Shown: piece by piece, positions 1-59,127 of the stretch
Layout of the letters: every line of letters starts with the position of its first letter
How positions within the stretch are numbered: the stretch's first letter is position 1
NCBI GenBank assembly: GCA_964351985.1
Contig: CAYGPR010000004.1
Span: 67,988-131,987, forward strand
Direction of reading: 5' to 3'
DNA length: 64,000 nt
From: an uncultured Maribacter sp.
Lineage (GTDB): Bacteria > Bacteroidota > Bacteroidia > Flavobacteriales > Flavobacteriaceae
Notes under the pieces: model-generated
Databases searched by the model: none
What the model was told of the DNA's origin: nothing
What the model saw: the letters and a program-made list of their open reading frames with translations, nothing else
Position numbers and translations under genes: made by a program

Positions 1-2365
1 CGTATATAAGTTGCCTGTCAGTGAATGGGAAACTGCCTATGCAGGTCGAGGGGCACCGTATACAAGATTGGATAACGGTGAAGTGGTGAACCCTACTTTT
101 ACCAACGATAGAATTGCGAACACGGCATTAAATGCGGATCCATGGTTATACCCCGATACAGATTGGATGGAGGAGGTCACTACAAAGGGTGCTCCAATTG
201 CAAGACAGGGTCTACAGATTTCGGGTGGTACTGAAGATGTTCGGTATTATGCCTCTCTCGGCTACCTTCGTCAAGATGTCAATTTCAGAAACGCCCCGAA
301 AGGGTACACCCAGTACGACCTGCGAGTGAACCTTGATGCCTACATCAGCGAAAGCCTTAAGTTGCAAGTAGGTCTTTATTCTAGGCAAGAAGAGAACTAC
401 TCGGCCACAAATAGTCCAGGTAATGTTTTTAATGATCTGGTGCGTCAATATCCCTGGTTTCCGGCCTATTGGCCTACTGGCGAATACGGCCCTGATATTG
501 AAAACGGGAACAACCCTGCCATACGGGTGACCGATGAGCCTGGTTTTAACGATGTTCAAAATAACTATGTGCAGAGCAATATCGGCCTGACCTATACCGT
601 GCCCCAAGTTGAAGGGCTTGAATTTCAAGGCTATGTTTCTTACGACAAGACCCATGCGGATACAAGGCTTTGGCAGCGACCTTGGACACTTTTTACTTGG
701 GACGGCGTAAATAGGAATTCTTCGGGTCTTGTCCCGGCCCAGCGTGGCCCGTCTGACCCCAGCTTACGACAAACGAATCGGACCAATACCGATTTTACGG
801 CCACTTTGACAGGTTCGTACGAACTAGATTTGGGCGACAATGTTTTTAGGTTATTGGGTGGTATTACCCGAGAAGAGAATGAGCAGCAATTTTTCGGGGC
901 CTTTAAACGGTTCTTTCTTTCAAACGAACTGGCACAGTTGGATCTTGGTGGTCAAGAAGGGCAGTCCAACGAAGGTAACGGGTTTGAGGCGGCACGTTTA
1001 AACTATTTTGGTAGATTCAACTATGCTTTTAAAAATAAATATTTATTGGAATTCTTGTTCCGATATGATGGATCATATTTGTTTCCAGAAGAAAATCGAT
1101 TTGGCTTTTTCCCCGGTGTCTCTGCAGGGTATGTGTTGTCGGAGGAACCTTTCTTTCAAAAAGCCTTGCCGTTTTTCAATTATTTTAAGTTAAGGGGTTC
1201 CTGGGGGCAATTGGGCAACGACCAAGTGGGCCAATTTCAGTACCTTAACGCCTATGGCCTATCACAAACAGGTTTGGAAACTGTTGTAACTACTGCTTTT
1301 GAACAAAACGTGGCCAATCCTAATATTACTTGGGAAACGGCAACGAACACCAACATTGGCGTTGACATTCGTGTTTTTGACAATAGATTGGGTATTAGTT
1401 TTGATTATTTTAAGAATACCCGTGATGATATCTTGACCACGCCTCAGTTGACACTGCCGGATTATAGTGGAATTAACCCCCCTGCCGTGAACATCGGTCA
1501 ATTCGAGAATAAAGGCTTTGAATTTACATTAACTTTTGCCGGCGGAGAAGAAGAGGGCTTTAACTATACCACCAACTTTAACTTTAGCGATACTAACAAT
1601 ACCTTGGTCTTTTTCGACGAACCCCTCTTGGAAGACCGCCCATGGCAACGTCAAACTGGTGGTGAACTGGGTCGACCTTTGCGTTATAGGTTTGCGGGGG
1701 TATTCCGAAATCAGGCCGAGATTGATGCAGAGCCCTTGGACTATAGTGCGGTGACACCAGAATTAAGACCCGGCGATGCCAAAGTTTTGGATATTAGTGG
1801 AGATGGCACCATTGGTCCAGAAGACAGAACTAGGGTAGGTGGTAGTCCTTTTGCGGATACCCAATTAGGATGGAATGTTTCGTTAAATTATAAGAAGATA
1901 GATTTTAACATGTATTGGATTGCCGCTTTTGGAGCATATAATACTTATGAATGGGCCTTTATGTCAGGTACCTTAGCGAACATACAACGAGAGGTGCGAG
2001 ATCGTTCTTGGTCTTTGGAAAACCCCAATGCCCCATTTCCAAGATTGGCGGATCGTGGAGATCAGTGGTTTTCCAATCAGACCGATGCCCATTTGGTCAA
2101 ACGCGATTTCGGAAGGTTGAAATCATTGGAACTGGGTTATAGTTTCGACCAAGATTTAATTAGTGCCATCGGAGCCGAAAGTTTACGGATATCTGTAATC
2201 GGGACAAACCTGATTACCATTACTGATTTTCCGTTCGACCCCGAAGTTTCGCAGAATGGTATTAATATAGGCGCAACAAGGAATGCTACGGGCGCGGCCG
2301 TCAATAATGGAGGTGCCTACCCGCTTCTAAAAACAATAACTATGGGATTGCAAATAACTTTTTAA
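1..2365 (+). CDS. SusC/RagA-type TonB-dependent outer-membrane receptor, C-terminal ~785 aa (5' end lies upstream of the window)
   Basis: The frame is open from the window edge. The sequence is beta-barrel-like and ends in a terminal aromatic (...TMGLQITF). A SusD-like lipoprotein gene follows 10 nt later, which is the canonical SusC/SusD pairing. Confidence 0.85.
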   Translation, partial: VYKLPVSEWETAYAGRGAPYTRLDNGEVVNPTFTNDRIANTALNADPWLYPDTDWMEEVTTKGAPIARQGLQISGGTEDVRYYASLGYLRQDVNFRNAPKGYTQYDLRVNLDAYISESLKLQVGLYSRQEENYSATNSPGNVFNDLVRQYPWFPAYWPTGEYGPDIENGNNPAIRVTDEPGFNDVQNNYVQSNIGLTYTVPQVEGLEFQGYVSYDKTHADTRLWQRPWTLFTWDGVNRNSSGLVPAQRGPSDPSLRQTNRTNTDFTATLTGSYELDLGDNVFRLLGGITREENEQQFFGAFKRFFLSNELAQLDLGGQEGQSNEGNGFEAARLNYFGRFNYAFKNKYLLEFLFRYDGSYLFPEENRFGFFPGVSAGYVLSEEPFFQKALPFFNYFKLRGSWGQLGNDQVGQFQYLNAYGLSQTGLETVVTTAFEQNVANPNITWETATNTNIGVDIRVFDNRLGISFDYFKNTRDDILTTPQLTLPDYSGINPPAVNIGQFENKGFEFTLTFAGGEEEGFNYTTNFNFSDTNNTLVFFDEPLLEDRPWQRQTGGELGRPLRYRFAGVFRNQAEIDAEPLDYSAVTPELRPGDAKVLDISGDGTIGPEDRTRVGGSPFADTQLGWNVSLNYKKIDFNMYWIAAFGAYNTYEWAFMSGTLANIQREVRDRSWSLENPNAPFPRLADRGDQWFSNQTDAHLVKRDFGRLKSLELGYSFDQDLISAIGAESLRISVIGTNLITITDFPFDPEVSQNGINIGATRNATGAAVNNGGAYPLLKTITMGLQITF

Positions 2366-2375
2366 ATAAATTGAA

Positions 2376-4250
2376 ATGAAAAAGAACCTTTTTAAAATTG
2401 GAACCTTAGCGGTGTTCGCACTGCTTATGGTAAGTTGTAACGATGACTTTTTGGAGACGACTCCATTGAGTCAAGCGTCAGAACCACAAGTATGGTCGGA
2501 TAAAAAATTGGCTGAAGCGGCTGTTTTAGATCTGTACCAAGGAACATGGGCAGGAACCCTCACGCGTGAGGAAACTACCGATGCCTTTACAGACCAAGCC
2601 GTTTTTACCCACCCTGGACGTGGGGTCGACGGATATACCGAAGGAAAAATGAATCCGGCGGGTAGTTTTATGGATATGCAATGGATGAGTTGGTCGAACC
2701 TCTATCCCTTTATTCGTGGCGCTAATATTGCTATATCGAAGTTGCAGGAAAATGAAGCCGAATTGGACGAAGCTTCAAGAAATCGACTGCTTGGTGAGGC
2801 CTACTTTATGAGGGCCTATTACTACACGCAATTGATGCGTCAATTTGGGGGCGTTGTTTTGTTGACCGAGCCACTAGAGCTTGATAGCGAAGCGAACAAC
2901 CCTAGGGGAACGTTTGAAGAAACAGTAAATCTGATCGTATCCGATATAGATCAAGCCATTGTACTTTTGGAAGATGCTCCGGCCAGCAAGGCACGTGTGC
3001 ATAAGATTACTGCTTTGGCCTTAAAATCAAGAGTACTCACCCATGCGGCAAGTGACTTATACGAACCTTCGAAGGCGTCTAGTGTGGCTACAATAGCATC
3101 TTATAGCCACCCGGAATTAATCGGATATACCGGTGGCTCGCAAACTACGAGATGGGAAGCTGCCAAGGCCGCTTCAAAAGCATTATTGGATGCTACAACA
3201 GGTTATAAACTGGATTATGCCGCTCCTGCCTCACAGGAAGAGGCTATTCAAAATTACGAGGATATATGGCTTCAAGGAGATCAAAATCAAGATTTCATAT
3301 GGGGTCGATTAGTAGAAGAATTTGGTTTTGGTTCTAGAACATACCCTGGTGGTGATGGTTGGTCACAAGGGCCAGGTATGGTTGCGTTGTATCACGGGCC
3401 CAATGGATATCACGAATGGGCAGGTACAACGCCGACAGAGGCATTGGTTTCGAAATATACACTGGCGGATGGTACCGAATTTGACTGGGACAACCCTGCT
3501 CATGCCGCGGCACCATACGACAATAGAGAAGCACGCTTTTATTCTACCATCTTATACGATGGTGCGCCATGGAAACCGCGAACCGATGATGTGGTCAAAT
3601 TTGACAAATACAACGAACTACAAACTGGATTTTACACTTTTTCCGATGGAACGATTGTGAATGGTGTGGATACTCGACAAGGCCCTATTGAGGATTGGAA
3701 CGGGTCAAGAACCGGGTATTATTTCAAGAAATTTGCGGATCCGAGGTTGCCTGCGCAGTGGCCTAACAACCTTCAGAAAGTCGATGCGCCTTATATACGC
3801 TATACAGAGATTTTATTGAACTATGTTGAGGCTTCGATCAATTCGGGTGACGAGGGCGAAGCAAAGGTGTGGTTGAATAAATTGAGGTTTAGAAATGGGC
3901 TACCTGCCGTAACGGAATCAGGTAGTGCATTACTGGAACTCTATAAGCGCGAACGTGATAAGGAACTAGTGAACGAAGATGCGCGTCTTTTTGATATGAA
4001 GCGATGGTTGGAAGGGCCGGAATCACTTAACAAACAAGTGCAAACAGTACTTGTTCAAGGCACCCAAAAACCGGGTACTTCGGTAACGCCTGAAGATTAT
4101 CGAAAAGATACATCATTGTGGGATTATGAGTACACGCCTACGAACATTGTATTCGAGAATAGAAGATGGCTAGACCATGTTTATTTTATGCCCATATGGC
4201 AAGAAGAAATCGATAAGGATCCTTCGCTTATACAAAACCCAGGATACTAA
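2376..4250 (+). CDS. SusD/RagB-family nutrient-binding outer-membrane lipoprotein
   Basis: Lipoprotein signal MKKNLFKIGTLAVFALLMVSC. SusD-like helical core (EAYFMRAYYYTQLMRQFGGV). Sits directly downstream of the SusC-like gene. Confidence 0.85.
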   Translation: MKKNLFKIGTLAVFALLMVSCNDDFLETTPLSQASEPQVWSDKKLAEAAVLDLYQGTWAGTLTREETTDAFTDQAVFTHPGRGVDGYTEGKMNPAGSFMDMQWMSWSNLYPFIRGANIAISKLQENEAELDEASRNRLLGEAYFMRAYYYTQLMRQFGGVVLLTEPLELDSEANNPRGTFEETVNLIVSDIDQAIVLLEDAPASKARVHKITALALKSRVLTHAASDLYEPSKASSVATIASYSHPELIGYTGGSQTTRWEAAKAASKALLDATTGYKLDYAAPASQEEAIQNYEDIWLQGDQNQDFIWGRLVEEFGFGSRTYPGGDGWSQGPGMVALYHGPNGYHEWAGTTPTEALVSKYTLADGTEFDWDNPAHAAAPYDNREARFYSTILYDGAPWKPRTDDVVKFDKYNELQTGFYTFSDGTIVNGVDTRQGPIEDWNGSRTGYYFKKFADPRLPAQWPNNLQKVDAPYIRYTEILLNYVEASINSGDEGEAKVWLNKLRFRNGLPAVTESGSALLELYKRERDKELVNEDARLFDMKRWLEGPESLNKQVQTVLVQGTQKPGTSVTPEDYRKDTSLWDYEYTPTNIVFENRRWLDHVYFMPIWQEEIDKDPSLIQNPGY

Positions 4251-14519: not shown

Positions 14520-14547
14520 CAGATTGCTCTGCTTTGCTCGCAATGAC
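14520..14547 (-). repeat. Family A palindromic element (reverse orientation): GTCATTGCGAG-caaagcaga-GCAATCTG
   Basis: Shares both terminal motifs with the copies at 15968-16006 and 40436-40482. Lies 2 nt after the stop codon of the deacetylase gene. Confidence 0.75.
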
Positions 14548-14549
14548 GA

Positions 14550-15457: not shown

Positions 15458-17590
15458 TTAACTGATTTTTACCCCATCGTCAACCCCATCTTCATCTGGG
15501 TTGACAAAAACCAACTTACCATCTGTGCCCTCGGCCAATAAAATCATACCCTGACTTTCGGTACCGCGTAATTTTCGTGGGGCCAAATTGATCAGTACGG
15601 TAACTTTTCTGCCGATCAGTTCCTCGGCGGTAAAATGTTCTGCGATGCCCGAAACAATGGTTCTCTTATCTAATCCGGTATCGACTTTCATGACCATCAA
15701 CTTATCGGTCTTTGGCATTTTTTCGGCCTCTAAGATGGTGCCGACGCGCATATCCAATTTTGAGAAGTCTTCGTAGGTAATGGTTTCTTTTTGTGGCATT
15801 AGGGTTTTATTTTCGTTGTCATTGGATTTTTTAGTGGCTTCTAGCTTATCGAGTTGGGCCTTGATTTCGTCATCCTCTACTTTTCGGAAGAGGAGTTCGG
15901 CTTTTCCGATTTGATGGTTTGAGGGAAGGAGGGACTCTTTTTTGGAAACATCTTCCCATTTCAATGAGTCATTGCGAGACCCGTTTTTTAGGGTCGCGGC
16001 AATCTGCTGAGCGTTGGCCGCATCGTTGCTCTCCGCGCTAAGACGAAGTATTTGCTTGAGCTTAGTAGAAGTAAAGGGCAAAAAAGGTTCGCTCAAAACG
16101 GCAAGTGCGGTTGCGATCTGTAGGGCGACGAACATGATGGTCTTGACCCGTTCTTCGTCTTCTTTGATTACTTTCCATGGTTCTTCGTCGGCCAAGTATT
16201 TATTTCCTAAACGAGCGAGGTTCATCAGTTCTTGGCTTGCTTCACGAAAGCGGTACCGTTCAATGGAACTTGAGATAATTTCCGGGTATTTTCGTAATTG
16301 ATCCAATGTATCTTGGTCGATATCCGAAAATTTTCCAGGAGTCGGCACCTTTCCATCATAATACTTATCGGTCAAAACGACCACCCGATTGATAAAGTTC
16401 CCGAAAATGGCTACGAGTTCATTGTTATTGCGTGCCTGAAAGTCCTTCCATGTAAAATCATTGTCCTTCGTCTCGGGTGCATTGGCGGTCAAGGTATATC
16501 GCAGTACATCTTGCATATCAGGGAATTCCTGTAAATATTCATGCAACCAAACCGCCCAATTCTTTGAAGTGGAGAGTTTATTTCCTTCCAAATTCAAAAA
16601 CTCATTGGCAGGTACGTTTTCTGGAAGAATGAAATCTCCGTGAGACTTCAAAATTGCAGGGAAAATAATACAATGGAAAACGATATTGTCCTTACCGATA
16701 AAATGGACCAGTTTGGTGTCCTTGTCCTTCCAATAGGGTTCCCAATCCTTTCCTTTCCGTTCGGCCCATTCTTTGGTAGAAGAAATATAGCCGATGGGCG
16801 CATCGAACCAAACATAAAGCACTTTTCCTTCGCCACCTTCCACGGGGACGGGTATGCCCCAATCCAAATCCCGGGTTACGGCACGGGGTTCGAGACCGCC
16901 ATCGATCCATGATTTACATTGGCCGTAGACATTGGGTTTCCAGTCATTTTTATGTCCCTCGAGAATCCACTCCTTAAGAAATCCTTCATATCGATCTAGA
17001 GGCAGAAACCAATGTTTGGTCTCTTTCGTCGTGGGGACACTACCAGTAATGGTCGATTTCGGATTGATAAGATCTGTGGCATTCAGTGATGAGCCACAAT
17101 TTTCGCACTGATCTCCGTACGCTTCTTCGTGACCGCATTTCGGACATGTACCAACTACGAAACGGTCGGCTAAAAACTGTTTGGCCTCCTCGTCATACAA
17201 CTGTGCGGTGATCTCTTCGATAAAATCACCTTGCTCATATAATTTTATGAAAAAATCGGAAGCGGTTTTATGGTGAACTTCCCTTGAGGTGCGCGAATAA
17301 TTGTCGAAGGTAATTCCGAAATCCTGAAAAGACTTTCGTATGATTCCGTCATATTTGTCGATGACTTCTTTTGGGGTAATGCCCTCTTTTTTGGCTTTCA
17401 TCGAAATAGCGACCCCATGCTCATCGCTTCCGCAGACAAATGCAACATCATTACCTGTCATGCGCAAGTATCGTGCGTAGATATCCGCTGGAACATAAAC
17501 GCCCGCCAAATGCCCTATATGAATGGGGCCGTTGGTATAGGGAAGTGCGGCTGTTATCGTGTATCGCTTCGGATTTGCTTCTTGAGCCAT
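15458..17590 (-). CDS. metG: Methionine--tRNA ligase
   Basis: HIGH motif ([14 protein letters not shown]), KMSKS-like KLSTSKN, Zn knuckles [18 protein letters not shown], and a C-terminal EMAP-like tRNA-binding domain. I prefer the ATG at 17590 ([11 protein letters not shown]...) over the ORF-track start at 17653, because a -7 box lies 19 nt upstream of it. Confidence 0.95.
15968..16006 (+). repeat. Family A palindromic element inserted in frame inside metG
   Basis: GTCATTGCGAG-acccgttttttagggtc-GCGGCAATCTG. Both 11-mer termini are identical to the intergenic copy at 40436-40482. Internal stem GACCC/GGGTC. Length is 39 nt = 13 codons, read on the minus strand as [14 protein letters not shown]. 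Confidence 0.75.
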
Positions 17591-36091: not shown

Positions 36092-36096
36092 CAAAC

Positions 36097-36201
36097 ATCA
36101 TTGCGAGGAGCGACCTTGAAAAGGTAGCGACGAAGTAATCTGTTACTTTGGAACACCAAAAAGACGGATTGCTTCGTCGCAAAAAGGCTCCTCACAATGA
36201 T
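36097..36201. repeat. Inverted pair of family A elements forming a ~105-nt imperfect palindrome between convergent genes
   Basis: Left arm: ATCATTGCGAGGAGC...GCGACGAAGTAATCTGT (36097-36143). Right arm 36164-36201 has the reverse complement ATCATTGTGAGGAGC...GCGACGAAGCAATCCGT. It probably also acts as a bidirectional transcript-end structure. Confidence 0.8.
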
Positions 36202-36203
36202 CT

Positions 36204-38672
36204 TTACTTCTTCATCAACAAAGCCGCCATCCGCTTTACACGATCTTCCCATTTTTCACTTGATAATTTTTCTCGGCTCAACCGATCCGTAATCAAAGGA
36301 AAAGCAAAAGGAGTGGCTTTTTTACATTCTTTCCAAACAATTTCTTGTGTGCCTATCCGTTCCATGGAAAGTCTCAATCGACCTTCTTCCAATTGGTGTT
36401 GAAAGGTTTCTGTAAAGGCTTGTTGAAAGAGTAGGTTTTCGGGTTCGTAGTCACGGAAAACTTCGAAGAGCAATTGTGAATTGCTCTGCAAATGTTTCAT
36501 TTTAATACCCTTGTTCGGGTAGCCCGTAAATACCATGCCGCTGATGATCGCAATATCACGGAATTTTCGTCGTGCCATTTCGGTGGCGTTCAAACTTTTT
36601 TGCAGGTCGTCCAATAAATAATCCGTGGTAAAGAGATTATTATCGAGCACTTGCTGCATATCGATAGGCTTGTCGGAGAGCAGTTCGAATCCGTAGTCAT
36701 TAAATGCTAACGAAAAAGTGATGGGCGAGAGTAGGCTAATACGATACCCCAACAAGCTGCCCATTGCCTCATGTACAAAGCGACCTTCGAAGGGATAGAA
36801 AATATGATGGTATCCATCGCGTGTTTTGAAGGTCTCAATTAAAAATTCGTTCGGTTTGGGTACAATGCTTTCCCGTCGTTGCCTTTCGAAAATATGTGCC
36901 AATGACCTGATTTCGGGGGATTGCTTTTTGGGTTCTTCATAGGATGAGTACAATTCTTCCCGTAGCAGTTTGGACATTTGTGCCGAAAGGGTAAGGCGAC
37001 TTCCCATCCAACTCGAAATTTTGTTCGTTCGTTTGGTCGAATTCCGTACATGCACTTGCATATCTTTTATCCGGATGAATTCCAAATTGCGACCGGCAAA
37101 GGTAAACACATCGCCCTCGTTCAATTTCGAAATGAAATACTCTTCGATGGAGCCGATGTAACCACCTTTTTGATAGCGAACCGTCAAGTTCACATCACCT
37201 ACTATAGTTCCTATTTGAAAGCGATGTCGCATGGCAACGCCACGGTCGTTGACCTTGAATTTTCCATCTTCCTCGACCTCTACTTTTTTGTATTCATCGT
37301 ACGATTGTAGGCTTTGACTGCCCATCACCAAGAAGTTCAAAAGCCATTGCCATTGGTCTTTGGTAAGGGTCTGGTAACAGAAAGTTTGACGGACTTCTTC
37401 GTAGAGTTCATCGGGATAAAATCCTTCGGAAATCGCTAAAGTCGTCAAATATTGTAAAAGCACATCGTAACTGTTGAGATAGGGAATGCGGTCTTCCACG
37501 GTATTTTCCTTGACCGCTTTTTGCAGCGCTGAGGCCTCTATCAGCTCAATGGCATGGGTTGGCATAAAATAGATAACACTTTCCTTACCTGGACTGTGGC
37601 CACTTCGACCTGCCCGTTGCAAAAAGCGAGCTACGCCTTTCGGACCTCCGATTTGCACTACCGTTTCTACCGGAGCAAAATCGACACCCAGATCCAAGCT
37701 TGACGTGCAGACAACAGCCTTTAGACTTTCATTACGAATCGCCTGTTCAACCCAATTTCTGGTTTCCTTATTGATGCTCCCATGGTGCATGGCGATTTCC
37801 CCGGCATATTCCGGATGTTTTTCTAATATTTTTTGAAACCAGATTTCGCATTGGCTTCTGGTATTGGTAAAAAGTAAGGTGGTTTTACTGTTGTTGATTA
37901 TAGGAACAACGTCTTCCAACAAACGTATTCCAAGATGACCTCGCCAAGGAAAGGTTTCCATTTGTTTTGGAATGATGCTTCTTACCGTAATCTTCTTTTT
38001 GATATTTGCCTTGATCATCACAGAATTCTGTAAGGCCTCTGTCTCTGGACCTAGCAAAACATCTCTTGCCTGTTCTAGATTTCCGATGGTTGCCGAAATT
38101 CCCCAGATGCGCAGTTGCTTGGAAACGGTTCTTAACCGTGACAAAGCGAGTTCCATTTGCACCCCCCTTTTGGTTCCTAAAAGCTCGTGCCATTCATCTA
38201 CTACAATGGCCGAACAGTCCTTGAAGACTTTGTCATAACCTTTACTCGCTAAAAGTAATTGCAAACTTTCCGGCGTAGTAATCAACAAATCGGGCATTAG
38301 CTTTTTCATGGCTGCCCGAGCTTTGGTAGAAGTATCCCCGGTACGGATTCCTACGGTCATTTGAGTTTCCAAATCGGCTGTGACCCGCTCAGCCGACTGC
38401 CTGATTTCTTGGGAAAGAGCCCGCAAAGGGGTGATCCAAACTGCCTTTAATCCTTTTTTATGTTTGGTTTTGTAGTGTGGATTCTTTTTAATGTAATTCA
38501 AGACAATAGGAAACCATAGCGCGTAGGTTTTTCCGCTACCTGTTGGGGCGTTTAGTAGTCCGTGTTTGCCTTGTAGAAAAGCTTTCCAAGTGTCTTTTTG
38601 GAATTTGAAGGGTTTCCAGTTCTGTTCTTGAAACCAGTTTTCGGCGATTTCGTAAAGTTGGTCTCTGTTCAT
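36204..38672 (-). CDS. Ligase-associated DEXH-box helicase (Lhr-like)
   Basis: Walker A NAPTGSGKTYA, DEXH box VVDEWHEL, and a long C-terminal Lhr-type extension. Lies 9 nt downstream of the ligase gene. Confidence 0.85.
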   Translation of the reverse strand: MNRDQLYEIAENWFQEQNWKPFKFQKDTWKAFLQGKHGLLNAPTGSGKTYALWFPIVLNYIKKNPHYKTKHKKGLKAVWITPLRALSQEIRQSAERVTADLETQMTVGIRTGDTSTKARAAMKKLMPDLLITTPESLQLLLASKGYDKVFKDCSAIVVDEWHELLGTKRGVQMELALSRLRTVSKQLRIWGISATIGNLEQARDVLLGPETEALQNSVMIKANIKKKITVRSIIPKQMETFPWRGHLGIRLLEDVVPIINNSKTTLLFTNTRSQCEIWFQKILEKHPEYAGEIAMHHGSINKETRNWVEQAIRNESLKAVVCTSSLDLGVDFAPVETVVQIGGPKGVARFLQRAGRSGHSPGKESVIYFMPTHAIELIEASALQKAVKENTVEDRIPYLNSYDVLLQYLTTLAISEGFYPDELYEEVRQTFCYQTLTKDQWQWLLNFLVMGSQSLQSYDEYKKVEVEEDGKFKVNDRGVAMRHRFQIGTIVGDVNLTVRYQKGGYIGSIEEYFISKLNEGDVFTFAGRNLEFIRIKDMQVHVRNSTKRTNKISSWMGSRLTLSAQMSKLLREELYSSYEEPKKQSPEIRSLAHIFERQRRESIVPKPNEFLIETFKTRDGYHHIFYPFEGRFVHEAMGSLLGYRISLLSPITFSLAFNDYGFELLSDKPIDMQQVLDNNLFTTDYLLDDLQKSLNATEMARRKFRDIAIISGMVFTGYPNKGIKMKHLQSNSQLLFEVFRDYEPENLLFQQAFTETFQHQLEEGRLRLSMERIGTQEIVWKECKKATPFAFPLITDRLSREKLSSEKWEDRVKRMAALLMKK

Positions 38673-38681
38673 TCAGCAGGT

Positions 38682-40316
38682 CTAAGGTATCATTTCCTTT
38701 AAATCCGAAAGGCTATTCGCTTCATGAATATTCTTGTCTTTTCTCCACCTCAACATTCTCGGAAAACGAGTTGCTACTCCACTTTTGTGCCGTTTTGATA
38801 GGGCAATTCCTTCAAAGGCGATTTCAAAAACATGCTGCGGGGTAACCGACCGTACCGGACCGAAACGTTCCAAGGTATTTTTTTTGATCCAATTATCAAC
38901 TTGTCGGAATTCGGCATCGGTCAATCCCGAATAGGCTTTGGCGAAAGTGACCAATTCTTTTTCACCTTCTTCATTCTCGTTCCAAAGTGCAAAAGTGTAA
39001 TCGGTAAAAAGATTACTTCTTCTGCCATGACCTCGCATGGCATAGGTTAAAACCGCGTCAATGGTCAAAGGGTCCACTTTCCATTTCCACCAGTCTCCTT
39101 TTTTTCTTCCTACTAAATAAGGGGAATCCTTTCTTTTGAGCATCAAGCCTTCACTATGGACATCACGTGAACGTTCGCGTTCTTTGGCGACTTCTTGCCA
39201 AGAGTTGAAATGTAGGGTTTCAGAGAGGTGAAACGGCATTTCAATATTGGTGTTCGTAGCCCCTCGACTGCGCTCGGGGTGACATACTGTTTGAAATAAA
39301 TTTTCCAGTAATTTTCGCCTTTCAAGAAATGCTAGGCTCCGGATATCTTTGCCCTTCCATTCGATTAAATCATAAGCCTTTAAAATAACTGGAACTTTTT
39401 TCAATAGTGCTTTGGAAACGGTTTTGCGCCCTATGCGGGTTTGAAGGTCGTTAAAGGTGCCGATTTGGCCTTCCGGATAAGGTAGGATTTCACCATCAAT
39501 TACTGTACCGTTCGGAATGATGCCAATGAATTCTCCGAACTCGGGATACTTGTCAGTGACCAATTCCTCCCCACGGCTCCAAACAAAAATTTCGTCGTTT
39601 CGAAGGATGACTTGCGAGCGGATTCCATCCCATTTATGCTCAGCAGACCATTCGCTGACATCTCCCAAATCATGCACTTTATCTTCAATGGCATAGGCCA
39701 AATAAAAAGGATAGGGTTTGGACAGGTAGTCACTTTCGTTTTCCTCCAAGATTAATTCTTGAAAGGTAATTTGATCGGAATCCCAATTGCCCATGAGTTT
39801 ATAGGCCAGGATATCTTCATCTATTTCAGTGGACTTGGCTAGCGCACGGGTCATCAATTTTTGACTGACCCCAATTCGGAATCCACCAGTAATTAACTTG
39901 GTGAAAACGAAACGTTCATAATAATCCAATACCTTCCAGTTTTCAAAAAGATAGGCTCGTTTTTCTTCGTCGGATTTCTTTTTGAGGGCAATCATTTCCT
40001 CCAAAAATTGGGTCAACTTTTTTTCGGTGGAAGATTTTGAGGAAGGAACTACCAAAGCGATTGTCTCGGCCAAATCGCCCACGATGTGATAACTTTCCTC
40101 AAAAAGCCATAAGGGAATGTTCGACAATTCAGACGCCCACTCACGCAGCAATGTGGTATTTACTGGCCTTGGTGGACGGCGGTGCGACAAGATGGCAATG
40201 GTCCAAACTTTGTCTTTATCGCTCGCAACAGAAAAATAATCGGCCAAGGCCTGAACTTTGACATTGGTCTTGTTAGTACTATCTAGCGTTTTTATGAGTT
40301 GTGCAAAATTCTTCAT
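38682..40316 (-). CDS. ATP-dependent DNA ligase (ligase-associated DNA damage response type)
   Basis: Adenylation motif I AEHKWDGIR (KxDG), motifs EGLMLKRKDSPY and WWKWK, and a C-terminal OB fold. Confidence 0.9.
   Translation of the reverse strand: MKNFAQLIKTLDSTNKTNVKVQALADYFSVASDKDKVWTIAILSHRRPPRPVNTTLLREWASELSNIPLWLFEESYHIVGDLAETIALVVPSSKSSTEKKLTQFLEEMIALKKKSDEEKRAYLFENWKVLDYYERFVFTKLITGGFRIGVSQKLMTRALAKSTEIDEDILAYKLMGNWDSDQITFQELILEENESDYLSKPYPFYLAYAIEDKVHDLGDVSEWSAEHKWDGIRSQVILRNDEIFVWSRGEELVTDKYPEFGEFIGIIPNGTVIDGEILPYPEGQIGTFNDLQTRIGRKTVSKALLKKVPVILKAYDLIEWKGKDIRSLAFLERRKLLENLFQTVCHPERSRGATNTNIEMPFHLSETLHFNSWQEVAKERERSRDVHSEGLMLKRKDSPYLVGRKKGDWWKWKVDPLTIDAVLTYAMRGHGRRSNLFTDYTFALWNENEEGEKELVTFAKAYSGLTDAEFRQVDNWIKKNTLERFGPVRSVTPQHVFEIAFEGIALSKRHKSGVATRFPRMLRWRKDKNIHEANSLSDLKEMIP
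39259..39283. repeat. Repeat-like GC-rich segment in frame inside the ligase gene (encodes CHPERSRGA)
   Basis: In GCCCCTCGACTGCGCTCGGGGTGAC, the 14-mer CTCGACTGCGCTCG (39263-39276) is identical to part of the intergenic palindrome arm at 57306-57319. It lies in the linker between the adenylation and OB domains. Confidence 0.45.
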
Positions 40317-40350: not shown

Positions 40351-40435
40351 TTAAATCCGTGTTTCGAAGTAACAGTTTGCCACGTCGCATTAAATATTTT
40401 ATACTTAACCATTTTTTTCAGCTCCTCGCAAAGAC

Positions 40436-40482
40436 GTCATTGCGAGCTTGCTTGTCGAAGGCAAAGCAAGCGCGGCAATCTG
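40436..40482 (+). repeat. Family A element: GTCATTGCGAG-[GCTTGCTT gtcgaaggc AAAGCAAGC]-GCGGCAATCTG
   Basis: Termini are identical to the metG-internal copy. Internal 8-bp stem GCTTGCTT/AAGCAAGC. Preceded by GCTCCTCGCAA, the reverse complement of TTGCGAGGAGC at 36101-36111. Confidence 0.8.
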
Positions 40483-40483
40483 T

Positions 40484-41512
40484 TTAATTTACTTCTGCCG
40501 GTTCTTCTTTGCTGGCATTTATCTCTCCCAGTTCACCTTCGTATTGCGTTTCCTCTGTTCTCGCATCATAGCCCTGTTCCCTCAAATAGCGTGAAAAAAT
40601 CTCCGTATATCCATGTGTACATATAATCTTTTCTGCTCCGGTGGCATTAATACTTTCCAGCAATCCTTGCCAATCGCAATGGTCGCTAAGCACGAAACCT
40701 TTATCGATGGCACGTCTTCTTCTTGCTCCCCGAAAGGTCATCCATCCGCTGGCGGAGGCGGTTACGTAAGGTACCATTTTACGGATCCATGTGCTGCCAT
40801 GTGCGCTTGGCGGTGCGAGTACTATATTGCCTAAGAGTTCTTGTTTTTTCGTTTCCCGTGTAATCAATGTGGTTTTTGGAAAAGCGACCAAAGGACGCAA
40901 GACTTCCGTCATGTTTTCGATAGCGCCGTGGGTGTATATTTTTCCGATATCGGTGTTCAAATGTTTTAGAAGACGCTGTGCTTTCCCTAATGAATATCCA
41001 AAAAGAATGGAAGTCTTACCCTCTGCTTTGTTCTCTGCCCACCATTGGTTTATATTTTCGAAAACTTCTTTTTGGTGCGTCCATTTGAAAGCGGGCAATC
41101 CAAAGGTGCATTCGGTAATGAACGTATGGCATTTGATGGGTTCGTAGGGAGTGGAAATTCCATCGTCCTCGGACTTATAATCCCCGGTAAAGACCCAGAC
41201 TTCTCCCTTATGCTCAACACGAATTTGTGAGGACCCGATGATGTGTCCCGCCGGATGCAGACTGAATTTGACATTGTTGATACTAAACGTTTCACCCCAT
41301 TCCCGTCCAGAAACATTAATATCTCCCAAGCGATGCGAAACGATCGGTACGTTTCTGTGATGTGTGATATATTGTTTGTGTCCCCAGCGGCTATGATCGG
41401 CATGACCATGGGAAATAATGGCCTTATCGACCGGCTTCCAGGGGTCGAGGTACACCTTGGCCGCACTACAGTAAATACCTTTGTCGGTAAATTCAAGAAG
41501 AGGATTGTTCAT
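40484..41512 (-). CDS. Ligase-associated DNA-damage-response exonuclease (metallo-beta-lactamase / beta-CASP fold)
   Basis: MBL motif ISHGHADHSRWG. About 340 aa. Sits upstream of the ligase on the same strand. Confidence 0.8.
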   Translation of the reverse strand: MNNPLLEFTDKGIYCSAAKVYLDPWKPVDKAIISHGHADHSRWGHKQYITHHRNVPIVSHRLGDINVSGREWGETFSINNVKFSLHPAGHIIGSSQIRVEHKGEVWVFTGDYKSEDDGISTPYEPIKCHTFITECTFGLPAFKWTHQKEVFENINQWWAENKAEGKTSILFGYSLGKAQRLLKHLNTDIGKIYTHGAIENMTEVLRPLVAFPKTTLITRETKKQELLGNIVLAPPSAHGSTWIRKMVPYVTASASGWMTFRGARRRRAIDKGFVLSDHCDWQGLLESINATGAEKIICTHGYTEIFSRYLREQGYDARTEETQYEGELGEINASKEEPAEVN

Positions 41513-56580: not shown

Positions 56581-56607
56581 CGCGGACTTGCCCCCGAGGT
56601 AGTTTAC
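56581..56607. repeat. Repeat unit C, partial copy 3 (CGCGGACTTGCCCCCGAGGTAGTTTAC)
   Basis: Shares CTTGCCCC(R)AGGTAGTTTA with 50464-50482 and 9236-9253. Overlaps the stop codon of the 56604-57257 gene. Confidence 0.6.
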
Positions 56608-57257
56608 TTTTCTTGGGAATTTTTGGTTGTGCCGAGATAGACCCATGCTTTTTTACCGGATGCCAAGCGTACTTGTTTTCTAATATATTCTTGACCCTCG
56701 TAAAAATCTGCTGCCAAAAGTTCGTCTGGCGTTAAAACGTAACATATTCCGGCAACGGTGTCTTCCTCATTTTCTGTATGGGTGATAGTCGGATACGCAT
56801 TTGCGATTTTTATTTCTGAAATTTTATGACCCCTTAAGATATCTTGTGCTCCTTCTAGCGTTCTAGAGAAATGAGCCATTTGTATCGTTTCGTCCTGCAG
56901 GGTTCCATAGGTAAAAAGGTATTGGGTGGCACTTCCCTTTTCATTCCGGTGCTCGCTGACAACCTCCATTTCGGTGCGAAAGGAAACAAATTTTCCGGCA
57001 AATCGTTTTTGAACATCTTGTCTTAATCTTGCCGCATCTTCTTTATAGTATTGGCTCAAAGTATCTTTGTCAATGGTAGTGAATTGCACCGAATAGGTAA
57101 TACCACCCATTTCTTCTTCGACCAAGACCCTGCTCATCTTGGCATTCAAGAATTTCCCCGTCGCCAAGACATCTGAAATATGGGTTTCCTTCATCCATTT
57201 CACCCATTCGTCATGAACGGATTCTTCGATATTCGTGGTTACGTTGTAGATGTACAT
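56604..57257 (-). CDS. Fusion protein: N-terminal DUF4286 + C-terminal gamma-glutamylcyclotransferase-like (AIG2/GGACT) domain
   Basis: The N-terminal ~100 aa (MYIYNVTTNIEESVHDEWVKWMKETHI...) is DUF4286-like. The C-terminal part has YLFTYGTLQD and ...FYEGQEYIRKQV, typical of the GGCT-like fold. Confidence 0.6.
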   Translation of the reverse strand: MYIYNVTTNIEESVHDEWVKWMKETHISDVLATGKFLNAKMSRVLVEEEMGGITYSVQFTTIDKDTLSQYYKEDAARLRQDVQKRFAGKFVSFRTEMEVVSEHRNEKGSATQYLFTYGTLQDETIQMAHFSRTLEGAQDILRGHKISEIKIANAYPTITHTENEEDTVAGICYVLTPDELLAADFYEGQEYIRKQVRLASGKKAWVYLGTTKNSQEK

Positions 57258-57267
57258 TCTTGTCTGT

Positions 57268-57320
57268 TCGAGCGCAGTCGAGAACTACCTGTTGTATAAA
57301 TAGGTCTCGACTGCGCTCGA
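57268..57320. repeat. Perfect 16-bp inverted repeat TCGAGCGCAGTCGAGA / TCTCGACTGCGCTCGA with 21-nt spacer
   Basis: Arms at 57268-57283 and 57305-57320, intergenic between the TPR gene stop and the DUF4286 gene start. No U-tract, so it is REP-like rather than a classical terminator. Confidence 0.85.
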
Positions 57321-57339
57321 CCTGCCAGGCGAATATGAT

Positions 57340-59127
57340 TCAATTCACGGCATCTCCCCTTAGCATTCTAAACGTTTTCCGCGCCTGCGGAAAATAATAG
57401 CTATCCTGATAATTATAGATGATCTTTTCATAATGCTCCTTTGCTTTTTCAGGCTCGTTGAGCACTTTTCGATAAAGTTCGGCGAGGGCGAAGTGGGCAT
57501 CGTCGGCCAAAATTCCGTTTCCGTAGAATTCGGTTATTTTTTGGTAATTGAACTTGGCGGCCTCGTAGTCTTTTGTAGCTTCCAAAAGTTCGCCCTGCTT
57601 TAAGAGTGCTTCATCCTCTATTTTTTCTCCTTTGTGTTCTTGAAGAATGGTTTCTAATTCGGCTATGGCTTCCTTCGTTTTGTTTTGATAGGCCAACAAA
57701 TCGGCGCGTGCGTATTTTTTCAATGCGGTCCGCGTAGAATCTTCAAGAGAATTATCCGATATCAAAAGACTCAATTGCATCGCATCGTTCGCGATCAACT
57801 GTGAAGTCGACCCCCGAAGCACTTTGAGCTGTGTCAAGGCCCAATCAAAATCTCCTTTGTAGAAACTTGTCTGTGCTACTTTGTACCGGGCGTTTTGGCC
57901 CATAACATCATTTTTGAGCTTTTTTTGGATTTGGGAAAAATAGATGAGGGCCTCATTGAATTTTTTATCGAATACCAAAATATCGCCCAAGGCCAATTTT
58001 ATATAGGCTATGCCGCGCTCGTTCAGGGGAAGTTCCAAACTTTTTTTGAGCATATCGATTGCCGGTTCGGGAGTATCTTTTCTAAAGGTCAAAAAGTTCG
58101 CATAGGCCACTTGAAGCTGTAACGTTTGACTTTTATAGCCGTGAATATTCGTGAGCTCTTCGTATCGTTTTTGAATGACGTCCAACTTTTTGTTATCTGC
58201 ATCGAGCAGTTGAATATCGATAAGGTTCAGTTCGGCATCAAGTTGGGTCACTTCGTTGTTCGTATTGGCAATGATGTACTCATAGATTTCGGTTGCCGTC
58301 GGTATGGCATCATTTTCAAAAGCCATATCGGCCAACCCTTCTAGACGCTGCACGGAACTGGCATCGGTTCGTTTGTAAATGGCCTTTTCTTGCCGAAATG
58401 CACTATCGTACTGTTGTTGCTGTACAAATAGCCAGCTCAAAAGTTCGTTCCATAAGATATTAGGATTCTTTTGGGCGTTTTGAAGCAGTATGCGCTTTAG
58501 TTTTATGTTGTTCTCGTTTTCGGGATCGCTTGAAATAAAATCGTCGATACCTCGAAGAATATTTGATTTTGATGCTTTGCCCTCACCAATTAAGGTAAGA
58601 TAGGCTTCGTACATTTTTTCTATATCTCCTTGTTCGCCGTAGATGCGGGCCTTTTGATAATTGTAGTCCAGTTGCGGATTGAGTTCCATGGCCCTTGAAT
58701 ACGCTTTCAGCGCATAATCGAGCAGGGCGTATTGTTGGAATTTGAACCCGAGGCCGTAACCGAAATTAGGATTTTCGTCGATCTTCAAAATCGCCCTATC
58801 GTAATACGTAGTGGCCTTTACAGGTTCGTCTTGTAGCGTATAATTGTAGCCCAGTTCCACAAAAAGGGTAGGGTATGGATTGCCTTCATCGACTTTCTTT
58901 AGAAGGAAATCCTCAGCATCGGTATAACGTTCCAGTTGTTGGTAACAGGCAACCAACCCTTCGGCATAATCGGTTCTGCGGGGGTCCCTATCGACCAGTT
59001 TTTCATAGAAGACGACCGCTTTTTCGAAATCGCCATCGGCAAAGTATTGTTTTGCCAAGAAATCGTCTTGAGCAAAAGTGGAGGTTAGAAGTACGAGGTA
59101 CGAAATTAAAAGTATTAGTTTTCGCAT
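57340..59127 (-). CDS. Tetratricopeptide-repeat (TPR) protein, secreted
   Basis: Signal peptide MRKLILLISYLVLLTSTFAQ. TPR-like helical repeats throughout (YF..GDF.KA...YE). Confidence 0.75.
   Translation of the reverse strand: MRKLILLISYLVLLTSTFAQDDFLAKQYFADGDFEKAVVFYEKLVDRDPRRTDYAEGLVACYQQLERYTDAEDFLLKKVDEGNPYPTLFVELGYNYTLQDEPVKATTYYDRAILKIDENPNFGYGLGFKFQQYALLDYALKAYSRAMELNPQLDYNYQKARIYGEQGDIEKMYEAYLTLIGEGKASKSNILRGIDDFISSDPENENNIKLKRILLQNAQKNPNILWNELLSWLFVQQQQYDSAFRQEKAIYKRTDASSVQRLEGLADMAFENDAIPTATEIYEYIIANTNNEVTQLDAELNLIDIQLLDADNKKLDVIQKRYEELTNIHGYKSQTLQLQVAYANFLTFRKDTPEPAIDMLKKSLELPLNERGIAYIKLALGDILVFDKKFNEALIYFSQIQKKLKNDVMGQNARYKVAQTSFYKGDFDWALTQLKVLRGSTSQLIANDAMQLSLLISDNSLEDSTRTALKKYARADLLAYQNKTKEAIAELETILQEHKGEKIEDEALLKQGELLEATKDYEAAKFNYQKITEFYGNGILADDAHFALAELYRKVLNEPEKAKEHYEKIIYNYQDSYYFPQARKTFRMLRGDAVN

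Follow-up and report, generated by a model that had tools for sequence, protein, structure and literature searches.

Rickettsia palindromic elements (RPEs) were reportedly described by Ogata et al. in 2000, with RPE-1 said to measure 100–150 bp and to be specific to Rickettsia. Here, we analyze a hairpin repeat carried in frame by metG, the gene for methionine-tRNA ligase (methionyl-tRNA synthetase, MetRS), in 64,000 nt of DNA from an uncultured Maribacter sp. (hereafter the window, whose positions are used as coordinates throughout unless a locus is named). Two further described systems come close to it. The first comprises the CGTC-tagged repetitive extragenic palindromes (REPs; Di Nocera, De Gregorio & Rocco 2013, BMC Genomics 14:522, PMC3733652), which carry a CGTC or TGTC (or CCTC) tag at one end and a stem that starts with AT, with a small loop and then a short unpaired tail, occur mostly as inverted pairs, and are dispersed over the genome at moderate to high copy number. 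Families CGTC-1 to CGTC-4 are distributed over five phyla including the Bacteroidetes, they include Rickettsia RPE-4 and RPE-6 and Neisseria dRS3, and some copies lie in frame, including in tRNA synthetase and DNA-repair genes; no dedicated transposase is known for them, and no RAYT (IS200/IS605-type tyrosine transposase) is reported to be flanked by CGTC units. The second system consists of the NTS/dRS3-type repeats (CGTCATTCCCGCG...GGGAATC) that flank ssnA (Chenal et al. 2025, Nat Commun 16:2388, PMC11893778). The product of this gene, the small GIY-YIG enzyme SsnA, recognizes single-stranded DNA, where it binds the hairpin and cuts upstream of it, with binding dependent on a C behind the palindrome and cleavage on the three nucleotides before it; Ssn is inactive on RNA and double-stranded DNA, and NTS repeats flanking genes in Neisseria alter transformation rates via SsnA. 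Ssn proteins belong to CDD cd10448, and the associated Ssn-related motifs (SRMs) are oriented hairpins of 20–50 nt, with a conserved GTC ahead of the palindrome and a C straight after it.

We consider it probable that the metG insert is a pair of hairpins of the CGTC-REP/Ssn type that has become an old and now decaying in-frame fixture of the MetRS linker, at a hotspot used by several repeat families, and that these repeats likely spread via a GIY-YIG enzyme. The gene itself (15458–17590, minus strand) encodes 710 amino acids starting from MAQEANPK, and from end to end its product shares 91% identity with MetG of Maribacter halichondriae. The initial annotation had placed a 39-nt element at 15968–16006 in this reading frame, and its position, its sequence on the plus strand (GTCATTGCGAG-ACCCGTTTTTTAGGGTC-GCGGCAATCTG) and its length of exactly 13 codons in frame are all borne out; the frame given for it is likewise correct, but the 14-residue peptide included a preceding Q, and the element encodes 13 residues. 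The actual insert is larger than the in-frame 39 nt, as it comprises 79 nt and 26 codons and extends to 16045 (15967–16045, residues 516–541), with two inverted units arranged tail to tail. The reported element is the right unit (15967–16006, plus strand, antisense to metG), with an (A)GTC tag, an ATTGC/GCAAT foot and a 5-bp inner stem, and the left unit, which also encodes 13 residues, occupies 16007–16045 on the minus strand, that is, the metG sense strand. On sequence grounds, the insert is a pair of units and not a single unit.

The right unit is recovered with 39.5 bits (E ~1e-6) by a covariance model (CM R1) that was built from unrelated genomes of other phyla and trained on invariant feet, and its orthologs in two related metG loci, L124 and L125, score 24 and 20 bits with the same model. 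As DNA, the right unit folds into a hairpin of −8.3 kcal mol–1 (z −2.8) with a loop of 8 nt, and both the GTC before the palindrome and the C straight after the foot are present (GTC...GCAAT-C). With shuffles of the window (n = 100) as the background, GTCATTGCGAG with at most one mismatch occurs five times in the window (three exact, two with one mismatch) against 0.68 expected, a count reached by none of the 100 shuffles, while the composite GTCATTGCGAGN{5,35}GCAATCTG occurs three times against 0.00 expected and is absent from every one of 100 dinucleotide shuffles. The argument that the recurrence of the termini goes beyond chance is therefore sound, and a chance origin of the metG element is excluded.

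The left unit reads CGTC-TTAGC-GCGGAGAGCAACGATGC-GGCCAA-CGCT, and is degenerate in the window allele and cleaner in orthologs. In L124, it is CGTCTTGGCGAGGAGAGCAGCGACGGGGCCAACTCT with a foot of TTGGC/GCCAA, and the codon alignment (metG DNA from eleven relatives) gives the complete L124 insert in the metG sense as CGTCTTGGCGAGGAGAGCAGCGACGGGGCCAACTCT-CA-ACAGATTGCAGCGACCCTAAAAAACGGGTCTCGCAAAGACG, the latter half being the reported element in antisense. The layout thus matches that of the right unit, with CGTC, a 5-bp foot (TTGGC/GCCAA), GAGGAG...CGACG, and then C. This unit, together with an intergenic unit at 40373–40436, was judged by direct alignment, as CM R1 missed both; in a global alignment with the family consensus, the left unit scored better than 20,000 of 20,000 shuffles in the window allele as well as in L124, L123, L127 and L125. 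Of the six reading frames of the pair, one is open, and it is the one that metG uses.

Matches to sequences in the PDB locate the insert within the protein. Solved MetRS structures cover residues ~8–513/518, and matches to Trbp111/EMAPII-like domains cover residues ~598–710. As the matches stop at residues 513–518 and resume at ~598, the pair starts right behind the catalytic/anticodon-binding core and falls in the linker that leads to the Trbp111-like C-domain, in agreement with the initial annotation, which had placed the element in the linker between the anticodon-binding region and the C-terminal domain. Its suggestion that a protein model would show the segment as a surface loop or linker holds with a reservation: residues 519–541 are coil with a predicted local distance difference test score (pLDDT) below 50 in an AlphaFold2 model, but this model is mediocre overall (mean pLDDT of 61.9), because the underlying alignment is shallow.

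The repeat had been taken for a Bacteroidetes family without a formal description, and this does not stand. A scan of representative genomes for the exact termini returned at least 120 loci with identical termini and variable inner stems, and, among the matches listed, these come from ~18 phyla: Patescibacteria, Chloroflexota, Bacillota, Desulfobacterota, Alpha-, Beta- and Gammaproteobacteria, Bacteroidota, Ignavibacteriota/Chlorobiota, Planctomycetota, Cyanobacteriota (Melainabacteria), Gemmatimonadota, Spirochaetota, Methylomirabilota, Atribacterota, Zixibacteria, Deferribacterota and Binatia. Repeats of this kind were moreover described as CGTC REPs in 2013 and as Ssn-related hairpin repeats in 2025. 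A literature search by the literal motif returned unrelated primer sequences only, and no account of RPE-like elements in flavobacteria emerged from a search directed at them.

CM R1 detects 226 units over 715 kb of repeat loci, many of them as close inverted pairs; in the window, inverted pairs lie at 15967–16045, 36096–36201 and 40373–40482, and they are frequent in other genomes. Each unit consists of a YGTC tag, a 5-bp foot that starts with AT (ATTGC...GCAAT), internal loops rich in G and A, an inner stem-loop that varies freely, and, behind the foot, a C with a short tail. Of 146 units, 60 have a C and 70 a T directly ahead of GTC, and the tail C-TG follows GCAAT in all pattern matches, the pattern itself having required it. 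The inner segment is self-complementary and measures 7–35 nt (35+ in some units), and its helix covaries: in the 17-nt class, five of the six pairs have changed on both sides and 84% of cells are paired, a score that none of 500 shuffles reaches and to which no slid register comes close. A rough test of open reading frame (ORF) coverage places most "covered" units at ORF N-termini, where they are probably extragenic, and suggests a few that are truly intragenic (L109, L008 and L098). These candidate in-frame copies lie at L109 5234–5270, L008 4201–4232 and L098 2326–2353, within ORFs of 1081, 703 and 645 amino acids in metagenome-assembled genomes (MAGs) of Dehalococcoidales, Bacteroidales and Ignavibacteriaceae, and would be read as VIASSLANGKQS, QIATGEALAMT and VIASETKQS, respectively.

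At the level of the described layout, the family shares with the CGTC REPs the CGTC/TGTC end tag, the A-T start of the stem after the tag, the unpaired tail, the inverted pairs, a mostly intergenic location with an intragenic minority, and an occurrence in Bacteroidetes. It differs from them in its foot of five invariant base pairs (ATTGC/GCAAT), its G/A-rich loops and its inner stem-loop of 7–35+ nt, compared to a published stem of 8–9 bp and loop of 4–5 nt, as well as in a CTG instead of a CCA tail and in its spread over ~18 instead of five phyla; short units such as that at 14520 come nearest to the published form. The resemblance to RPEs noted by the initial annotation is also apt, as RPE-4 and RPE-6 belong, according to the 2013 paper, to the CGTC-tagged superfamily whose layout the present family matches. 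In both cases, selfish palindromic DNA lies in frame in essential genes with the fold undisturbed and appears as an indel relative to orthologs, and the encoded peptides end in ...RND or ...GND, as the GTCATT tag is read alike. However, RPE-6-type peptides (SFLRKQES...LDSRFRGND) imply ATTCCCGCG...GGGAAT feet and not ATTGCGAG...GCAAT, there is no sequence homology past the CGTC-type layout of RPE-4/6, and here several families colonize one site.

The likeness to the Ssn/NTS system extends to the gene between the repeats. Both have an oriented hairpin of the form CGTC-AT...AT-C (NTS CGTCATTCCCGCGMAVGCGGGAATCYRG, compared to CGTCATTGCGAGC...GCAATCTG here), in which the three bases lying upstream of the palindrome and the C that follows it are conserved, and in both a single-domain GIY-YIG gene of ~100 codons is flanked on both sides. 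A GIY-YIG ORF (~95–100 amino acids, or 96–109 in the set matched to Pfam PF01541 at E 1e-15 to 1e-18) is present in eight of the 120 repeat loci listed, and in six of these eight it has ATTGCGAG units on both sides (L040 from Arenibacter, L021 from Lacinutrix, L044, L117 from Chlorobiota, L010 and L066, a set that includes a Flavobacteriaceae MAG, Bacillota and Alphaproteobacteria). In Maribacter sp. 2308TA10-17 (L132), a GIY-YIG gene has a tail-to-tail pair on each side with the CGTC tags outward, which is the arrangement of the metG insert. Bridging variants (CGTCATTCCGAG...GGAATCTC) adjoin ATTGCGAG units around one gene in L117, where ATTGCGAG...GCAATCTG units stand beside ATTCCGAG...GGAATCTC units, which are nearer to Neisseria NTS, at 2250–3460; this coexistence hints that one enzyme may tolerate, or two enzymes may share, related hairpins. 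GIY-YIG homologs are widespread in Flavobacteriaceae, with 99 amino acids and ~80% identity across many genera (P0121–P0344), and their genes are very often found on tiny contigs (0.5–3 kb), a pattern to be expected should the flanking repeats interrupt assembly on either side. Among solved structures, the nearest is a weak match to UPF0213 (1zg2, E 9e-5), and no M. halichondriae protein is among the best 120 homologs. Unlike here, NTS repeats are rarely intragenic (2%), and the strict SRM pattern considered below is unmatched here. The Flavobacteriaceae proteins are candidate Ssn relatives. The association of the family with GIY-YIG genes is evident from these gene neighborhoods, and it would make the encoded proteins putative catalysts of repeat cleavage and mobilization.

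The history of the insert can be read from its orthologs. In a protein alignment of 120 MetG homologs, the linker is hypervariable in both length and sequence, and the insert appears as an indel, as the initial annotation had anticipated. The shortest linkers read LAASNELGW or LALSTDLGW (in proteins of 689 amino acids), many homologs have LAVRSSAVETSW, and ~25 Maribacter-type MetGs share the pair, which has diverged among them (QQISAIEKSGSRKA, QEIATAHKNGPRND and others); other alleles at the same codon include SASLSDQ..TERSRS and STSTALGTGAVDG or SSDSPSANRIEN. The inner hairpin ACCCGTTTTTTAGGGT is identical in the window allele and in L124 (L122–L129 and L131 being metG loci of relatives, and L121 and P0001 the locus and MetG of M. 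halichondriae), and the insertion is therefore one old event. A recent independent insertion in the window lineage is ruled out by the same identity. Hairpin stability declines across the orthologous right units, from −8.3 kcal mol–1 in the window and −7.6 in L124 to −4.2 in L125, −2.7 in L123, −2.0 in L122 and −1.9 in L126, which indicates that the structure is not under conservation. Combined with the drift of the peptide in most orthologs, this decay argues that no structure is being maintained in DNA or RNA, nor any specific function of the peptide, and that the insert has since evolved as ordinary coding sequence, presumably neutrally. Across the clade, the insert is best kept where its termini encode IA(T/A) and (S/P)R(N/K)D. 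In L127 (~1888–1936 in metG), an additional small hairpin, CCCGAGACTTCGGGG, is nested in the right unit and adds four residues (EVSG), which suggests a possible route by which the variable inner stems of the family grow.

Based on these observations, we propose that the pair was inserted between the MetRS domains, in their linker, before a Maribacter clade diverged from its ancestor. It would have survived because the linker tolerates added residues and because the stop-free frame of the pair is the frame in use, and it would now persist passively as linker residues. The most likely spreading agent would be a small single-domain, Ssn-like GIY-YIG protein of the kind flanked by these units; by analogy to Ssn, spread may proceed via single-stranded hairpin intermediates that are handled by such a nuclease, with cleavage just upstream of the tag.

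Several points weigh against this interpretation. There is no GIY-YIG gene within the 64-kb window, and a cognate enzyme in this genome is thus putative. The published SRM pattern, HGTCWYN(0-2)YYVSBRHN(0-5)WNVSBRGN(0-2)RNCYNB, applied as a regular expression, matches nothing in the window, L132, L040, L044 or L121, with ATTGCGAG having a G where a Y is required; the units are therefore not filed as SRM in the narrow sense. The tag of the right metG unit is AGTC and not YGTC, the left unit goes undetected by CM R1, which was trained on invariant feet, and the mediocre quality of the AlphaFold2 model means that the description of the segment as disordered mainly rests on the PDB domain boundaries. 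Finally, preservation of the window copy is unusually good, down to two perfect termini, which could hint at constraint or gene conversion, and not at drift alone.

The same codon of the linker has also been occupied by other repeats. M. halichondriae has a different repeat there, TGTCCGGTCGAGCGCAGTCGAGACCT, identical to three intergenic copies in L124 just downstream of metG; it belongs to a second repeat family with the core GAGCGCAGTCGAG, of which the window has three copies, and it is related to the window copies at ~57262–57325. L128 has an inverted pair of yet another related repeat at this first site. A second site lies 50 codons downstream, right before the C-terminal tRNA-binding domain, where an 8-residue insert (TSAALGTG or ASTALSTG) is encoded by ACTTCGGCTGCGCTCGGCACAGGC; it is carried by P0001, P0003, P0013, P0016, P0040, P0068 and P0071 (in the linker alignment, L121 5700–5745 and L124 5770–5800 in metG), hence by M. 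halichondriae and not by the window, and its sequence sits at the first site in L129 and L131. As various repeats occur at the same codon and at a second site, the linker is a repeat hotspot with allele turnover.

This turnover bears on how the window allele was acquired. Outside the linker, the window and M. halichondriae MetGs are 97.2% (N-part) and 90.4% (C-part) identical, whereas the core is at most 92.7% identical to all others. At the DNA level, the window allele is ~90% identical to L121 along the gene and 53–73% identical within positions 1456–1680 of the coding sequence, where it is nearest to L124; for the patch at ~1520–1660, the values are 53–73% to the sister allele and 78–85% to L124. 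This patch of divergence, ~150–200 bp in length, would reflect repeated insertion and/or allele replacement by recombination, and recombination may have caused the swap of linker alleles between the two sister species. We give just short of an even chance to the possibility that a recent homologous recombination event brought the pair allele into the window lineage from another lineage of Maribacter, such that the pair was not inherited vertically and M. halichondriae did not lose it, a question that concerns the history of the insert only. The low identity of sister alleles in the patch and the proximity to L124 there both speak for such a transfer, as does the wide occurrence of "AVRSSAVETS"-type linkers in the wider group; however, none of the lineages sampled has a patch near-identical to that of the window allele, and the flanks have diverged about as far from L121 as from L124. 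Replacement in M. halichondriae fits the data equally well, and this ambiguity over the donor and direction of the swap also tempers our preferred reading.

A more far-reaching version, which we find doubtful, is that the Maribacter/Zobellia MetRS linker is a hotspot where Ssn-type hairpin repeats were inserted, nested and swapped (at least five repeat-derived alleles at one codon, plus the second site), and that the hairpins themselves promote allele replacement via nuclease-induced breaks or recombination. If true, an essential gene would be a cassette-exchange site, and the GIY-YIG protein would be the long-sought mobilizing enzyme of CGTC-type REPs in ~18 phyla.

It is quite unlikely, in our assessment, that the metG hairpin is maintained as a working site, either for cleavage or recognition of single-stranded DNA by an Ssn-type nuclease that would modulate recombination or transformation and drive turnover, or as an mRNA or DNA structure that would tune expression or co-translational folding. 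This possibility draws on the analogy to the Neisseria NTS, whose effect on transformation through SsnA is described in PMC11893778, and it would account for the perfect termini and intact hairpin of the window allele, for the replacement of linker alleles between sister species, and for the preferential retention of the residues encoded by the termini. The hairpin has nevertheless decayed in most orthologs that bear the insert (−2 to −4 kcal mol–1 in L122, L123, L125 and L126), the window has no GIY-YIG gene, and Ssn is, according to that paper, inactive on RNA and double-stranded DNA.

Mobilization by a RAYT, as for the classical REPs and REPINs of Pseudomonas and E. coli, is very improbable. 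Small imperfect hairpins, inverted pairs and a mostly intergenic location do correspond to general REPIN anatomy, both systems are dispersed and have a single-copy "domesticated" enzyme gene flanked by repeats, and PMC3733652 allows for RAYTs or other transposases as movers of CGTC units. The tag here, however, is YGTC and not GTAG, and the gene between the units in six to eight loci encodes a GIY-YIG protein and not an HUH Y1 transposase, in a set of loci on which no screen directed at RAYTs was made; that paper reports no RAYT flanked by CGTC units. Finally, an ordinary variable linker that resembles the repeat by chance or convergence can be dismissed, despite the hypervariability of the linker, as none of the 100 shuffles has the composite, CM R1 assigns E ~1e-6, a second inverse unit abuts the first, and the same architecture stands beside a Maribacter GIY-YIG gene.

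The metG insert is thus a real case of junk DNA that has become protein, though one with precedents, and what is new about it is the sequence variant, not the class of element. Its interest is that selfish hairpin DNA has here been built into an essential enzyme outside Rickettsia, in a clean and datable manner, at a single linker codon open to repeated colonization by different repeat families. It widens the realm of CGTC REPs and Ssn repeats by a ATTGCGAG variant that the published pattern misses, and which occurs with identical termini across ~18 phyla and, in Flavobacteriaceae, on the flanks of GIY-YIG genes. For annotation, it accounts for recurrent odd peptides (…IA…RND, …SAVE…, …ALGTG…) and for length variation in conserved proteins, and the combination of an Ssn-like gene and repeats in culturable marine flavobacteria offers a tractable system in which to study the spread of CGTC repeats.

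The window contains eight units of the family in total (six intergenic and two in metG) and three of the second family, and de novo counting of 10-mers in the window retrieves just the former family above low-complexity noise. Rfam has no family at the gathering threshold across the window, and nothing relevant at E <=10 near the element. The short intergenic unit CGTCATTGCGAGCAAAGCAGAGCAATCTG (14520–14548, minus strand; 28.9 bits, CGTC tag) lies downstream of a deacetylase-like gene next to metG. The initial annotation had reported both termini here, at 14520–14547; the left 11-mer is exact, while the right terminus is limited to its last 8 nt (GCAATCTG). M. halichondriae has a diverged ortholog of this unit at the matching intergenic position (L121 7013–7038), so the intergenic copies are old as well. 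A tail-to-tail pair consists of a unit with a CATC tag and a GTAATCTG end (36096–36142, plus strand; 23.7 bits) and its partner TCATTGTGAGGAGCCTTTTTGCGACGAAGCAATCC (36165–36201, minus strand, with an approximate start; 15.3 bits, E 0.21). At 40435–40482 (plus strand), CGTCATTGCGAG-CTTGCTTGTCGAAGGCAAAGCAAG-CGCGGCAATCTG has a long inner stem, a CGTC tag, a hairpin of −12.2 kcal mol–1 and a score of 41.6 bits. This is the copy for which both 11-mers had been reported at 40436–40482, and both are exact; it is, however, half of a head-to-head pair, sharing a common GACGTC with a unit on the minus strand at 40373–40436 (CGTCTTTGCGAGGAG...GCGACGTGGCAAACTG), which has a CGTC tag and a long AT-rich inner segment and escapes detection by CM R1. 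The latter is of the long-inner type that flanks the Maribacter GIY-YIG gene in L132.

The pairs at 36096–36201 and 40373–40482 bracket genes for a helicase (822 amino acids, 36204–38672) and a DNA ligase (38682–40316), and an ORF with a metallo-beta-lactamase fold (40484–41512) starts just past the second pair. This region resembles a gene cluster for a ligase-associated DNA-damage response, arranged as repeat-gene-repeat, and such a configuration is reported to affect transformation in Neisseria (PMC11893778). The core motif of the second family occurs three times in the window, compared to 0.02 expected. One of its units, TGTCACCCCGAGCGCAGTCGAGGGGCTA (39255–39283, minus strand; core GAGCGCAGTCGAG), lies in frame within the ATP-dependent DNA ligase-like ORF (38682–40316, minus strand), which reads it as ...VCHPERSRGA... 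(residues 344–352 of 544), and shares its family with the linker insert in metG of M. halichondriae. At 57262–57325, an inverted pair of second-family units (..GTTCGAGCGCAGTCGAGAAC.. and ..GGTCGAGCGCAGTCGAGACC.. on opposite strands) occupies the gap between the minus-strand ORFs at 56604–57257 and 57340–59127.

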